A stretch of 63,595 bases of DNA, filler included, from Octopus bimaculoides (Eukaryota), in the NCBI RefSeq assembly GCF_001194135.2. It is 12 parts of 11 records of this genome, joined end to end, with 100 filler letters (N's around TTAATTAATTAA, not from the genome) between each part and the next. Parts side by side here need not be neighbours in the genome. Positions count along the whole stretch, not along the records: positions 1 to 5,949 come from NC_068990.1; positions 6,050 to 11,630 come from NC_068985.1; positions 11,731 to 14,103 come from NC_068985.1; positions 14,204 to 16,081 come from NC_068996.1; positions 16,182 to 20,346 come from NC_068989.1; positions 20,447 to 29,186 come from NC_069001.1; positions 29,287 to 32,865 come from NW_026337435.1; positions 32,966 to 40,739 come from NC_068981.1; 4 more parts are not named here. One strand, written 5' to 3'. Every line of letters starts with the position of its first letter. The first letter of the stretch is position 1. This document shows, piece after piece, positions 180 through 50,348 of this stretch. The notes beneath the pieces were generated by a model. That model was not told the DNA's origin, searched no databases, and saw only the letters and a program-made list of their open reading frames with translations. The translations under genes were made by a program, and so were the position numbers.

Positions 180-446
180 GGGCATATGACGTTGTGGTTA
201 AGAGCGCGGGCTACTAACCCCAAGATTCCGAGTTCTATTCTAGGCAGTGACCTTAATAATAATAATTATAATAATAACAACATCGAAAAATTCCTTAGAA
301 ATGAGAACCCAGGTTCGAAATTTCCCCAAAACACCTGATGAAGGCTGGAGGGTTGTATTAACAACAAACAAGATGAGAACAAATATCCGTCAATTGTAAA
401 TAATGCAAATAATGTACATAATTCCTTATCTTTTAAGTACAGAACT
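180..446 (+). mobile_element. tRNA-headed hammerhead SINE, copy 1 (ribozyme 3' half deleted)
   Basis: Head gggcatatgacgttgtggttaagagcgcgggctactaaccccaagattccgagttctattc, then (AAT)n, then acacCTGATGAaggctggagg with about 15 nt deleted (including cagccgaaacg), then tail ending agaact. Colinear with copies at 3012, 19820, 38947 and 50027. Confidence 0.85.
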
Positions 447-1100
447 CAATTATATGAAGTGCAGAATTGACTACACTACCGATAGCGACAGATGCAGAAC
501 GTGTAGTGAGAGGGGTGAAATAGTATGGCACATCTTTAGCGAATACCCGAAATTGGCACAACGCGAATACAAACGACGTCATGACAATGTGGCAAGAATG
601 ATCAATTGGAAGCTCTGTGGAAATCACGGCCTAAACAGAGCAAACACGTGGTATGAACAAACTCCAAAAGGAGTCACAGAAAATGACAACTGCTAAATCT
701 TGTGGGATATAATGATCCAGTGCGATCACCTGGCCAGACATAGGAAACCGGACATTGTTGTGGTGAATAAAAAAGAAAGAACATTTAGGATTATCGACAT
801 AGCATGCCCCGCTGACAACAAGATCAATGTGAAAGAAGAAGAAAAAACATCTACGATGGTTTGAAGTGGAAAATGCGATGGCTGTGGTCAATGAAGAGAG
901 TAGACGCGATACCAATAGTAATTGGTGCACTTAGAAGTATCAGCACATGTCTGAAAAAGATCGGTGCAAGAACACCTACAAAAATCAGCATTGCTTGAAA
1001 CTGCAAGAATTCTTCGCAGGGTTCTTGAAGCATGACCAGTAAACAAGTGTCACCTTAGTCTGCTTGTGTTGGACAACTGACACTTTCCATCATACCCAGC
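447..1100 (+). mobile_element. Dong/R4-clade non-LTR retrotransposon 3' fragment (CCHC finger plus restriction-like endonuclease), decayed
   Basis: Translations DRCRTCSERGEIVWHIFSEYPKLAQREYKRRHDNVARMINW and ILWDIMIQCDHLARHRKPDIVVVNKKERTFRIIDIACPAD match the R4/Dong Zn-knuckle and PD..D-type RLE pattern. Stops and frameshifts present. Confidence 0.8.
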
Positions 1101-1117
1101 TGGGATCCATTGATCGT

Positions 1118-2357
1118 TTAGATCACTGTGATCCATTGATCGTTTAGCTTCATGTCATTGCAGTTGATGTTAGTTTGGGAGGAAGAGCATTCAGGAGAAA
1201 CTTGCTTTTCCGTGGCAACGGGGCACAGACTCCTTCTTTGTCTTGGTTTGGGCGTGAGTGTCGGAGAAGGTGTAGGAGTCTTGTGCACTTGTTTATGATT
1301 TAGCAGTTGTGGTTCTTGTGATGTTGGCTGCAGTGAGACTTCTTTTTTCTTTGTTTCAGGGCAGGAAACTTTTAAGTGTTTTACAGATCCACATTTATGG
1401 CATCTCGGCTTTCTATTCTTCACGAACACTAACAGGTGAGTGCCATCCTGGAGATCGATTAGATCAGGCAGATAGTCTACTTGGTCCTGCTTGCATTGCA
1501 AGGTCAATTTCATACCTATACCTAACCAGTTTTGCTTAGGTAACTTCTTGACCTCTAGTATAGTGACTTCGTCTTCTAAATCTGCGAAGACAGCCGCCAC
1601 CAACCAGGTAATGAATATTTCTGGCGACACATTTATCACCCTAATCTTGGCAAGACGTTGGCCGCGATAGCTGGGGATTAAGGAAAAGATGTCATTCTTC
1701 AAAGTGGTTGCGGAATTACATCTAGTTTCTTCTTCCGTCCCAAATCTCACCTCAATGGTTCCAAACTTCCTTACTCGGGTGATGTGTGTCTTTTGTTCCC
1801 ACGCGCGCCTAAGGCATTTCTATACTTTGCTTTCCGGAGCATTTTCCACCTGCCGAGACTTGACTCCGATGCAACGGTATGTGATCGTGCATCTTGTGAT
1901 ATTTTCTATCACGTCCAATGAGGGTTTAGAGCTACGCTTCTCTTTTAACAGTTTTTCTAGCAAATTTTAATTCTTCTTCATCTATGTGCAAGCACTCCAT
2001 ATTTCTCGCCGCTGACGCAAGAGATACAGTGGCGATATTTGCATTTTTATATTTTATTTCTTTCGTATTGTTGTTGCTGTTATTATTATCGCTGATGTTT
2101 TTGTTGCTGCTGCTGTCACAACTGCTGCTGCTGTTACTATTGCTGATGTTGTCACTGCTGCTGCTGTTGCTGTTGTTGTTCTCTTTCTCGACACCTAAAA
2201 TTTTGACGTTGCGTAGATACGAAACATTTTTCGCCCCAGTGACGTCATTAAATTTAGGCCACTCGATGCTAATATCCTCATTTCTTTCATTGTTCTCAAA
2301 ATTTCTCAAGGAGCGCGTTCCTTTATCGAACATTATGATGGCTTCTTTATAAACCAT
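1118..2357 (-). mobile_element. Gag-like ORF1 with CX2CX4HX4C knuckle, probably from an L1/Tx1-type LINE; disrupted
   Basis: 210-aa ORF contains CHKCGSVKHLKVSC. The frame continues upstream past one TAG, then shifts into the 1932-2357 ORF, which has a low-complexity S/N tract. No ORF2 follows. Clade is inference. Confidence 0.5.
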
Positions 2358-47520: not shown

Positions 47521-47869
47521 GGTTGTCATATATATACATGCATATGTGCGCGCGTGTGTGCCTATTTATATACACATGTTTTGCATTCTTATAATTTATT
47601 TCCACTCAAATAATTCTCTCTCCCTGTTTATACTTATTTTTACACAGACTAATTAAAAATACTTTCCTTTTCTTTATACTTATATAGCTGTACGCCTACA
47701 TGACTAATTAATTATTAGTATATGTAAGTACATATTCAAAATGGGAATGGATGTAAATTTATACCTATGNNNNNNNNNNNNNNNNNNNNNNNNNNNNNNN
47801 NNNNNNNNNNNNNTTAATTAATTAANNNNNNNNNNNNNNNNNNNNNNNNNNNNNNNNNNNNNNNNNNNN

Positions 47870-48102
47870 GGCACATAAAAGACACCATTTCGAGCGTGGC
47901 CGTTTTCGTGCGGGTGACACGTAAAAGCACCCACTACACTCTCTGAGTGGTTGGCGTTAGGAAGGGCATCCAGCTGTAGAAACTCTGCCAAATCAGACTG
48001 GAGCCTGGTGTTGCCATCCGGTTTCACCAGTCCTCAGTCAAATCGTCCAACCCATGCTAGCATGGAAAGCGGACGTTAAACGATGATGATGATGATGATG
48101 AT
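47870..48102 (+). mobile_element. SINE/MITE family E with (GAT)n tail
   Basis: gacacgtaaaagcacccactacactc...ggaaagcggacgttaaacgatgatgat. Homologues at about 55380-55835, 58150-58595 and 59960-60280. Confidence 0.75.
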
Positions 48103-50026
48103 GTATGTATGTTTGTATATATTGGAAAATGGATGCTAAATGATGATGATGATAATGATGACGATGACAACAATGTCGATGATGACGATGATGACGACGA
48201 CGATGATGATGATATATGTGCGCATATGTGTTGCAACCTGCTGGATTACATCAGTGCAATTTGAGATTTAAACTTAAGGGAGAATTGCATTTGTGTAGTT
48301 GTGAAGATAATTTAATAGCTTTAGTTCAAAAATATGTTACCTGTAGTCAAAGTGTAGCTATGGAAATAGAAATCAGATGAGCCTTCAGTGAAAGTGCATG
48401 AAATTGCAAAGAATTTACCTATTTTGGTTCTTATCCTTTTTGCCCAAAAGGTATAGCAGTTCATTATAATTCTAACATAACATGGATATATTTTTTCTAT
48501 TTTCGGAAGTTAGATTTGTAGAGAAAAGTGGTTCTGTTCTTGCACACACACCCANNNNNNNNNNNNNNNNNNNNNNNNNNNNNNNNNNNNNNNNNNNNNN
48601 NNNNNNNNNNNNNNNNNNNNNNNNNNNNNNNNNNNNNNNNNNNNNNNNNNNNNNNNNNNNNNNNNNNNNNNNNNNNNNNNNNNNNNNNNNNNNNNNNNNN
48701 NNNNNNNNNNNNNNNNNNNNNNNNNNNNNNNNNNNNNNNNNNNNNNNNNNNNNNNNNNNNNNNNNNNNNNNNNNNNNNNNNNNNNNNNNNNNNNNNNNNN
48801 NNNNNNNNNNNNNNNNNNNNNNNNNNNNNNNNNNNNNNNNNNNNNNNNNNNNNNNNNNNNNNNNNNNNNNNNNNNNNNNNNNNNNNNNNNNNNNNNNNNN
48901 NNNNNNNNNNNNNNNNNNNNNNNNNNNNNNNNNNNNNNNNNNNNNNNNNNNNNNNNNNNNNNNNNNNNNNNNNNNNNNNNNNNNNNNNNNNNNNNNNNNN
49001 NNNNNNNNNNNNNNNNNNNNNNNNNNNNNNNNNNNNNNNNNNNNNNNNNNNNNNNNNNNNNNNNNNNNNNNNNNNNNNNNNNNNNNNNNNNNNNNNNNNN
49101 NNNNNNNNNNNNNNNNNNNNNNNNNNNNNNNNNNNNNNNNNNNNNNNNNNNNNNNNNNNNNNNNNNNNNNNNNNNNNNNNNNNNNNNNNNNNNNNNNNNN
49201 NNNNNNNNNNNNNNNNNNNNNNNNNNNNNNNNNNNNNNNNNNNNNNNNNNNNNNNNNNNNNNTGTGTGTGTGTGTGTGTGTGTGTGTGTGTGTGTGTGTG
49301 TGTGTGTGTGTATGTGTGTAGCTAGGCACAGGCATAGCTGCATGGTAAAAAAGCTTGCTTCCCAACCATGTGATCATGGGTTCAATCCCACTGTGCGACA
49401 CCTCAAGCAAGTATCATCTGCTACAGCACTGGGCTGACCAAAGCCTTGTGAGTGGATTTGGTAGACAGAAACTGAAAGACGCTCATTGTCCTCCTCATCA
49501 TCATCATCAGTAGCAGCAGCAGCATTTAACATCTGTTTTCTGTGCTGGCATGGGTTGCATGGTTTGACAGGAGCTGGCAAGCCCAAAAGCCACACAAGGT
49601 TCCATTGTCTGTTTTGGCATGGTTTCCACAGTTGGATGCCCTTCCTAAAGCCAGCCACTTTACAGAGCATATATATATATATATATATATACACACACAC
49701 ACATATGCGTTGTATATAAACATTTAATGCATCGCTATGCACGTTTCCACAAATCACATGTCTCTTAAGATCACAGTCCGTATCATAGCACCTGTGGGCA
49801 TTGGGCTGATTATCTTCCTAGATTCATTTCTTCAGGCAACAAAACATTAATGGATGTACAACAGAGAGATGCTTATCCCATATGTTCAGAATTAATGTTA
49901 TATCGCCTGAAGAAGTGAATCCATGAAGATGATCTACCTGATGCCCACTGTAATCATCCCAGAAATATGGACTGTGATCTTAAGAGACGTGTAATTTATG
50001 GAGATGTGTTTAGTGATGCATTAAAT

Positions 50027-50348
50027 ACAGTTCTATATTTAAGAGATGAAGAATTATGTACATTATTTACATTTGATGGATATTTGCCCTCATCATGTTT
50101 GTTGTTAACACGTTTCAGTTGATATACCCTCCAGCCTTCATCAGGTGTCTTGGGGAAATTTTTCGTTCCTAAGGTATTTTTCGATGTTATTATTATTATT
50201 ATTATTACTATTATTATTATTATTATGATTATTATTATTATTATTATTCAGGTCACTGCCTGGAATCGAACTCAGAATCTTGGGAGGCATAAATATCACA
50301 ATTCCTCAATCTTGGGGTTAGTAGTCTTAACCACTACGCCATATGCCC
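50027..50348 (-). mobile_element. tRNA-headed hammerhead SINE, copy 5
   Basis: Runs gggcatatggcg...aaatatagaactgt. 14-bp TSD gtgatgcattaaat (50013-50026) / gtgatgcattacat (50349-50362). Hammerhead remnant at 50107-50148. Confidence 0.9.
50107..50148 (-). ncRNA. Degenerate minimal hammerhead motif
   Basis: Sense: acac CTGATGA a ggctg gagggtatat caact GAAA cg tgtt (short deletion at the cleavage site). Confidence 0.5.

Follow-up and report, generated by a model that had tools for sequence, protein, structure and literature searches.

A short retroposon of Octopus bimaculoides with a tRNA-like head and a consensus hammerhead, probably copied by Penelope-like enzymes

The window analyzed here, a stretch of 63,595 nucleotides, filler included, joined from 12 parts of the Octopus bimaculoides assembly GCF_001194135.2, contains six copies of a short repeat in which a tRNA-like head, with the box A and box B motifs of an RNA polymerase III (Pol III) promoter, precedes a hammerhead ribozyme motif. 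Short interspersed elements (SINEs) are defined as parasites of long interspersed elements (LINEs), and the repeat raises the question of what kind of element it is and by which enzymes it is copied. The answer considered probable is a short, abundant retroposon that combines a box A/box B head with a minimal hammerhead in its consensus; its 3′ part is likely the captured terminal repeat of a Penelope-like element (PLE), and PLE enzymes likely copy it from RNA left uncut by the ribozyme. Positions count along the window, and features lie on the strand of their copy.

The hammerhead motif of the family consensus

BLAST of heads and bodies recovered six family copies, and no more, in the window, at 180 (+), 3019 (+), 19820 (−), 20123 (+), 38947 (−) and 50024 (−), that is at the places and with the order of parts (head, (AAT)n, linker, hammerhead motif, tail) given in an earlier note on this DNA, whose labels 3012 and 50027 are kept for the second and the last copy. 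The copies are 81–89% identical pairwise, (AAT)n excluded, and together occupy 1,696 of 56,932 non-N bases, 3% of the window; like SINEs, the family is dispersed, short and non-coding. Its best translated match is an O. bimaculoides entry (83%), which indicates that the family occurs in that species. The N-terminus of protein P0020, a dystrobrevin model of O. bimaculoides, is translated SINE, through either exonisation or a gene-model error.

Copy 3012 (3019–3366, +) is full length with a long tail, and its minimal hammerhead (3244–3289, predicted cut between 3284 and 3285) has decayed through mismatches in stems I and II. The decayed hammerhead (19874–19919) of copy 19820 (19820–20120, −), which is full length with a short 3′ end, carries G12>A and a stem I mismatch; copy 38947 (38947–39196, −), devoid of the first few bases and with a short 3′ end, shows a single core change, G16.2>A, in its motif (39002–39047); and copy 50027 (50024–50348, −), with a long tail, a 25-nt insertion in the head and a 12-nt deletion in the linker, has a decayed motif (50107–50149) with a 3-nt deletion at the cut site. 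Head, a short (AAT)n and a long tail are present in copy 180 (180–446, +), the hammerhead of which is devoid of its 3′ half, and copy 20123 (20123–20331, +) comprises head, (AAT)n and the start of the linker, ending 16 nt before an assembly gap. The start of the motif is therefore reached by five copies, as the earlier note had it, but the whole motif by four, and none of the five contains an intact ribozyme according to a minimal descriptor.

The majority of the five copies alone is ambiguous (CAACC is obtained, with one base lost). Majority letters were taken from public reads: for copy 38947, from three raw RNA runs of organism A (5,629, 4,430 and 4,098 reads, with about 6% of each run sampled; the comparison left out the head, and 40 of 71 difference rows were listed), and for copy 180, from RNA of A and DNA contigs of organisms A, B and C (24 of 949 loose-end rows and 15 of 62 joints listed). 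With these letters, copy 38947 becomes exactly the consensus proposed in the earlier note and matches the descriptor, while the loose-end consensus of copy 180 supplies an intact 3′ half in four of four runs, the 3′-half loose ends numbering 194–240 contigs per DNA run with an agreement of 0.73–0.81. The broader majority of reads and contigs from the three organisms restores the motif, core and stem II pairing included.

The restored motif has a stem I of 5 bp (one G.U), an extra A after A9, a stem II of 6 bp (one G.U), C15.2-G16.2 and the triplet GUU; pairing probabilities of 0.95–0.98 are predicted over five pairs of stem II. An extra base between 9 and 10.1, G10.1-C11.1, a palindromic 15.2-16.2 and a short helix I characterize PLE minimal hammerheads (PMC4209133), and the consensus shows these features together with a CUGANGA/GAAA/NUH core closed by helix I. 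That the family consensus contains a minimal hammerhead of Penelope type is thus supported, as a candidate self-cutting motif with a predicted cut site. The dimer form is pseudoknotted; in a modeled short duplex, six bases would pair around ACGU, including A14 with U17, and this fold would compete with the core. The core-to-GAAAC pattern occurs three times in the window versus 0.26 expected, and the descriptor found nothing in 6,831,610 nt of shuffled sequence (60 window shuffles). Exact-motif scans returned three metagenome matches, all in unrelated context, and none in prokaryote genomes or viral contigs. Behind position 39034, about 200 reads per RNA run come from one expressed locus, in which the motif is folded back on itself at stem II.

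The invariance of the core noted in five copies is not a sign of selection, since core CpG positions vary like those outside the motif (32, 27, 24 and 18% versus 20, 18, 19 and 30% of RNA reads). The dispersed copies decay neutrally. The 3-nt deletion at the cut site of copy 50027 is also found in 9% of RNA reads and in nine contigs of a fourth run, and may mark a subfamily or reflect recurrent slippage.

Insertion footprints

The tail of about 80 nt that had been described is present, but in two lengths: two window copies stop 59–60 nt past the cut site, while three extend up to 28–29 nt further, ending about 87 nt past it, with the optional, Penelope-like extension at 3344–3366 in copy 3012. 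Loose-end rows at 405 and 446 are found in all four runs, one RNA row being probably dominated by a single locus. The copies end in neither poly(A) nor a simple repeat, a 9-nt tail repeat is followed by unique sequence in the long copies, and BLAST gave no match of the tail to the LINE remnants of the window. PLE insertions show a 31-bp optional tail (30–40 bp), head-to-head palindromes and duplications of 8–10 bp (PMC3846280), and the tail of an anole PLE corresponds to the stretch between two start sites of reverse transcription (PMC11167929).

At the 5′ end, copies 19820 and 20123, which had been counted separately, are both present, but as the left and right arms of one head-to-head palindrome, with a 2-nt AC/GT spacer at the junction (20112–20131, strand not applicable); copy 3012 has a 5-bp version, a fold-back palindrome around GT (3012–3023). 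Inverted heads also terminate the 5′ loose ends in three of three DNA runs (126, 90 and 150 contigs; agreement of 0.46–0.48 over 30 letters) and in 626 RNA reads, and in at least three joints the 5′ end is connected with an inverted arm that begins within the body, at 312, 362 or 380; these figures count contigs or reads, not the share of copies. An inverted, 5′-truncated copy at the 5′ end has been described for PLEs (PMC8557442). In stability, the 5-bp hairpin of copy 3012 does not exceed shuffled sequence (z −0.03 and −0.33), whereas the 8-bp form does (z −3.4 and −3.1). The arms 19820 and 20123 have two variants in common, and three other minor variants are common to other pairs; their 89% identity was rejected as proof of a single template, being too near the 81–88% of the other pairs.

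Exact 11-bp target-site duplications flank copy 38947 (3′ side 38936–38946; 5′ side 39192–39202, overlapping the element start by microhomology) and copy 50027 (3′ side 50013–50023; 5′ side 50349–50359), two of five; an exact 11-mer arose by chance in 6 of 3000 random pairs. Together with the two 3′ ends, the inverted arms and the sister elements described below, these duplications support as likely the proposal that the family captured a PLE terminal repeat and uses PLE machinery, and do so more strongly than the evidence in the earlier note.

The same footprints bear on an ordinary SINE with a passenger PLE fragment, mobilized by a LINE partner of the RTE, CR1/L2 or Dong-R4 type. LINE reverse transcriptase (RT) fragments do occur in the window, where 3 of 12 open reading frames (ORFs) match RVT_1; the 9-nt tail repeat resembles some LINE tails, and LINEs also make target duplications. 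However, the family has two discrete ends and unique sequence past the repeat instead of a poly(A) or simple-repeat end, and its inverted arms duplicate the head or the 3′ part, unlike the inversions of LINE twin priming; a LINE-dependent origin is quite unlikely. The RVT_1 matches lie at 23671–24096, 27530–27871 and 46493–47056 and are fragments of old LINEs. Right after copy 180, at 470–1020 (+), broken frames contain motifs resembling those of the end of an R4/Dong-type LINE where its restriction-like endonuclease lies.

Sister elements, the head and its transcription

With the open frame that spans motif and tail as query, phmmer gave 22 matches, seven of which show head-to-tail units of 40–43 codons and are translations of a sister element, S1; one match led to animal-like DNA in a bacterial metagenome-assembled genome, G001. 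In 400 kb of this DNA, only the hammerhead-tail module is common with the window at E 1e-12, and a profile search gave 11 matches in 24 loci. Three sisters, S1–S3, have ribozyme and tail homologous to the window family (69–78% identity) but differ in their heads, in each of which box A and box B-like motifs occur; in S2 and S3, the 5′ end of the head directly adjoins an inverted truncated arm. The contigs concerned (C16, C52 and C61; L063-L082, L087) are animal-like over hundreds of kb, rich in microsatellites and LINEs, and likely mis-binned host DNA. Sister S3 (L067:17640-18250) contains, between head and intact motif, a degenerate second ribozyme stem resembling the remnant of a partial tandem.

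Four window and eight sister motifs were aligned, copies 180 and 20123 and three weaker matches being omitted. The two core boxes differ between the families only at position 7, the triplet is GUU or GUA, and compensatory changes are found in stem II (C-G/U-A and G-C/A-U) and stem I (A-U/U-A). The covariation of stems I and II that the earlier note proposed to check was found, at 0.352 versus 0.197 in shuffled and at most 0.176 in slid alignments, with 86.6% of the stem cells paired; as to the number of pairs changed on both sides, 66 of 500 shuffles reached the value of the alignment. This evidence for the stems is good, not overwhelming; the hammerhead fold was likely kept by selection in source lineages.

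A chance look-alike, with a structure that was never selected, would account for the neutral decay of the copies and for the Rfam hammerhead models, which match neither two copies nor four sister loci. The shuffles devoid of descriptor matches (6.8 Mb), the restriction of core differences to the free position 7 and the compensatory stem changes largely refute this explanation, which retains hardly any probability.

A retrozyme, formed by tandem transcripts that are cut by dimeric hammerheads, circularized and reverse transcribed, finds support in the hammerhead itself, in the head-to-tail units of the S1 translations (7 of 22 matches) and in the derivation of non-LTR (long terminal repeat) retrozymes from PLE terminal repeats (bioRxiv 10.64898/2026.07.22.740005). 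Against it, known retrozymes have canonical type I motifs in tandem (PMC7229834), whereas no tandem unit is found among the six window copies, which end 59–87 nt past the cut site. RNA ends at the predicted cut were looked for in the three raw RNA runs and read ends pile up nowhere; RNA-seq of the anole PLE is likewise devoid of ends at the cut (PMC11167929). The retrozyme half of the "SINE/retrozyme hybrid" in the earlier note is for these reasons not supported, and such an origin is very improbable. No copy begins or stops at the cut site, which lies inside the copies; since cleavage would split head from tail, the templates of full copies must have been uncut.

In the retroposon considered probable, transcription would start from the head. 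Box A with box B downstream of it occurs in five of six copies, as at 3026–3079 in copy 3012 (box A at 3026, box B at 3071–3079), copy 180 failing the strict pattern; the distance is 44–45 nt in four copies and 70 nt in the copy with the head insertion. The pattern has eight window matches, three of them outside the family, versus a shuffle mean of 0.25 and a maximum of 2. The head is not called a tRNA by ARAGORN at default settings nor, for two copies, by Rfam, and the Rfam scan of the window had no hammerhead or tRNA among 150 of 196 matches listed; at a 60% threshold ARAGORN calls a tRNA in the head, but inconsistently. The head presumably fits tRNA-Asn at least as well as tRNA-Ile. The consensus had been described as free of TTTT, and a T4 run is absent from four of six copies, but copies 180 and 19820 have one each. 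In the window family as in S1–S3, the heads of which are different, the distance from the 5′ end to box A is 7 nt. Pol III transcription of the source copy, starting just upstream of the head, is considered likely.

These data can be set against a non-autonomous PLE spread by RNA polymerase II (Pol II) read-through, in which the tRNA-like piece is dead and no true Pol III SINE exists. RNA reads are strand-balanced and 83–86% of them continue into unlike sequence, the head escapes ARAGORN and Rfam as a tRNA, and non-autonomous PLEs such as MRC1 are known (PMC8557442). Against it stand the constant distance of 7 nt from the 5′ end to box A in four families with different heads, the inverted arms that abut this point in S2 and S3, and the absence of a T4 run from four of six copies; this explanation is judged unlikely.

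Copying scheme, known systems and meaning

In the proposed scheme, Pol III would transcribe the source copy from a start shortly before the head, and a PLE protein would likely bind the 3′ part of the RNA, uncut by the ribozyme, and nick AT-rich DNA. Reverse transcription would start at one of two sites, as suggested by the anole PLE, giving the two 3′ ends observed; at the 5′ end, the cDNA may fold back on the small hairpin, or the enzyme may jump template, to produce the inverted arms, and repair would leave the 11-bp duplication seen in some copies. A weak motif fits uncut templates, given the A14-U17 pairing predicted in the dimer and the poor cleavage of PLE minimal motifs. GUU is moreover a slow cleavage triplet. 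PLE minimal motifs cleave poorly in vitro (PMC4209133); for the anole PLE, hammerhead mutants still insert, cleavage requires protein and RNA 3′ of the start sites is needed (PMC11167929), and in a rotifer the sequences of pseudo-long terminal repeats (pLTRs) alone are enough for mobilization in trans (PMC3846280). The retained role of the fold would most likely be that of a weak protein- or dimer-gated ribozyme, or of a shape recognized by the PLE protein. As to its origin, a truncated PLE may, as a guess, have inserted into an (AAT)n run that followed a tRNA-like sequence; ATT is the preferred target of the anole PLE (PMC11167929).

Several observations weigh against this reading. An autonomous PLE with a matching tail was found by neither of two protein searches through the tail frames, which were weak searches; RT or GIY-YIG domains are absent from all 22 phmmer matches, and GIY-YIG from all 12 window ORFs. 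A PLE remnant in G001 (L087:1456-2060), a GIY-YIG piece followed by an N-terminal-like stretch that ends at a (TA)n run, was rejected as partner, having a different end and no visible hammerhead. Helix II measures 5–6 bp versus 7–8 bp in schistosome PLE motifs, and the optional tail, at 28–29 nt, is slightly under the published 30–40 bp. The possible target duplication of copy 3012 (3001–3010 and 3378–3387, 10 bp with one mismatch) is weak, none was found at copy 180, and the pair 19820/20123 is unassessable owing to the gap; three of four sister units have no target duplication and the fourth a weak, AT-rich one, and each sister head was seen once. The covariation stems from 12 related sequences, the kinship of which inflates the shuffle test, and represents about three events; of the three pairs, one arose by a double change of CpG type, and 5 of the 12 sequences do not keep pair 21-37. 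Finally, the balance of RNA reads across both strands means that these libraries cannot show Pol III transcripts.

A wider reading would see here an unrecognized class of SINEs served by PLEs, of several origins, in which the hammerhead would be gated by protein or serve for recognition, the second strand would be primed by a self-renewing 5′ hairpin, and one octopus family would make up a percent-level share of the genome. Its basis is that homologous hammerhead tails are joined, in two different animals, to four or more distinct tRNA-like heads; taken as a whole, it is slightly favored.

Among known systems, the pLTRs and insertion units of endonuclease-bearing PLEs resemble the window family in having a minimal type I hammerhead and an optional 3′ tail (PMC4209133; PMC3846280; PMC8557442; PMC11167929), and, in the texts cited, also head-to-head palindromes, inverted truncated arms, short duplications and a spanned cut site. 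The window family differs in that it lacks an RT/GIY-YIG frame, has a box A/box B head and (AAT)n in place of the PLE body, and consists of dispersed, short copies. The mention in the earlier note of a Pol III-type repeat with a hammerhead in Schistosoma is borne out by Sm-alpha and Sj-alpha, which have a tRNA-derived Pol III-type promoter, then a hammerhead, and a high copy number (PMC6765202; PMC2770079); these elements are tandem and self-cleave from multimers, the promoter ending 3′ of the cut, and the sections cited state no PLE footprint, whereas the window family has a minimal motif and uncut, dispersed copies. Animal non-LTR retrozymes are likewise non-coding, hammerhead-bearing and proposed to depend on PLEs (PMC7229834; bioRxiv 10.64898/2026.07.22.740005), but form tandem arrays with canonical motifs and circular RNA, the passages cited making no mention of a Pol III head. 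Chlamys PLEs such as MRC1 are, as proposed for the window family, non-autonomous with a 3′ end common with PLEs, but belong to a clade without canonical hammerheads, and a tRNA head is not mentioned in the part of the text cited (PMC8557442). Helenus and Ajax are a further case of a small RNA gene piece in a parasite of a non-LINE retrotransposon class; unlike the window family, they are small-RNA-derived non-autonomous LTR elements with an LTR partner and not a PLE (PMC10886601).

In its workings the family resembles a non-autonomous PLE, with the head of a SINE. A Pol III element with a hammerhead, PLE-derived retrozymes and non-autonomous PLEs are already known, and it is the pairing of a SINE with PLE machinery for which no description was found. 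In the portions of the literature covered, with Repbase, Dfam and SINEBase outside the comparison, no publication on a PLE-mobilized SINE or on a ribozyme in an octopus SINE was found; the word "ribozyme" occurs zero times in a 2026 repeat annotation of O. vulgaris (text and its one supplement) and in the text of PMC8967140. Prior annotation of the family is possible.

Other repeats surround the family. A further SINE-like family, younger than this one (up to 94% identity) and provided with a box A/B head of its own, is found at 3425–3810, 22459–22785, 52734–53116, 54980–55322 and other places, and a third dispersed repeat at 11784–11981, 19687–19820, 35289–35490, 60363–60548 and 63343–63572; copy 19820 ends inside one copy of the latter. 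At 42864–43211 (−), a frame without Pfam match resembles a signal peptide with the beginning of an immunoglobulin-like domain and may be a host exon.

If the reading is true, a Pol III element living on PLE enzymes would widen the definition of SINEs, and current annotation would misfile such elements. In vitro, insertion of the anole PLE proceeds without cleavage (PMC11167929), yet the fold is conserved between the window family and its sisters, and the family is a minimal substrate on which the role of the PLE hammerhead may be tested. Short and very abundant, it provides with its ends a large data set on the undefined steps of PLE integration, namely the tail, the inversion and the second strand; if a class of SINEs served by PLEs does exist, the octopus family would be a huge natural record of PLE integration.

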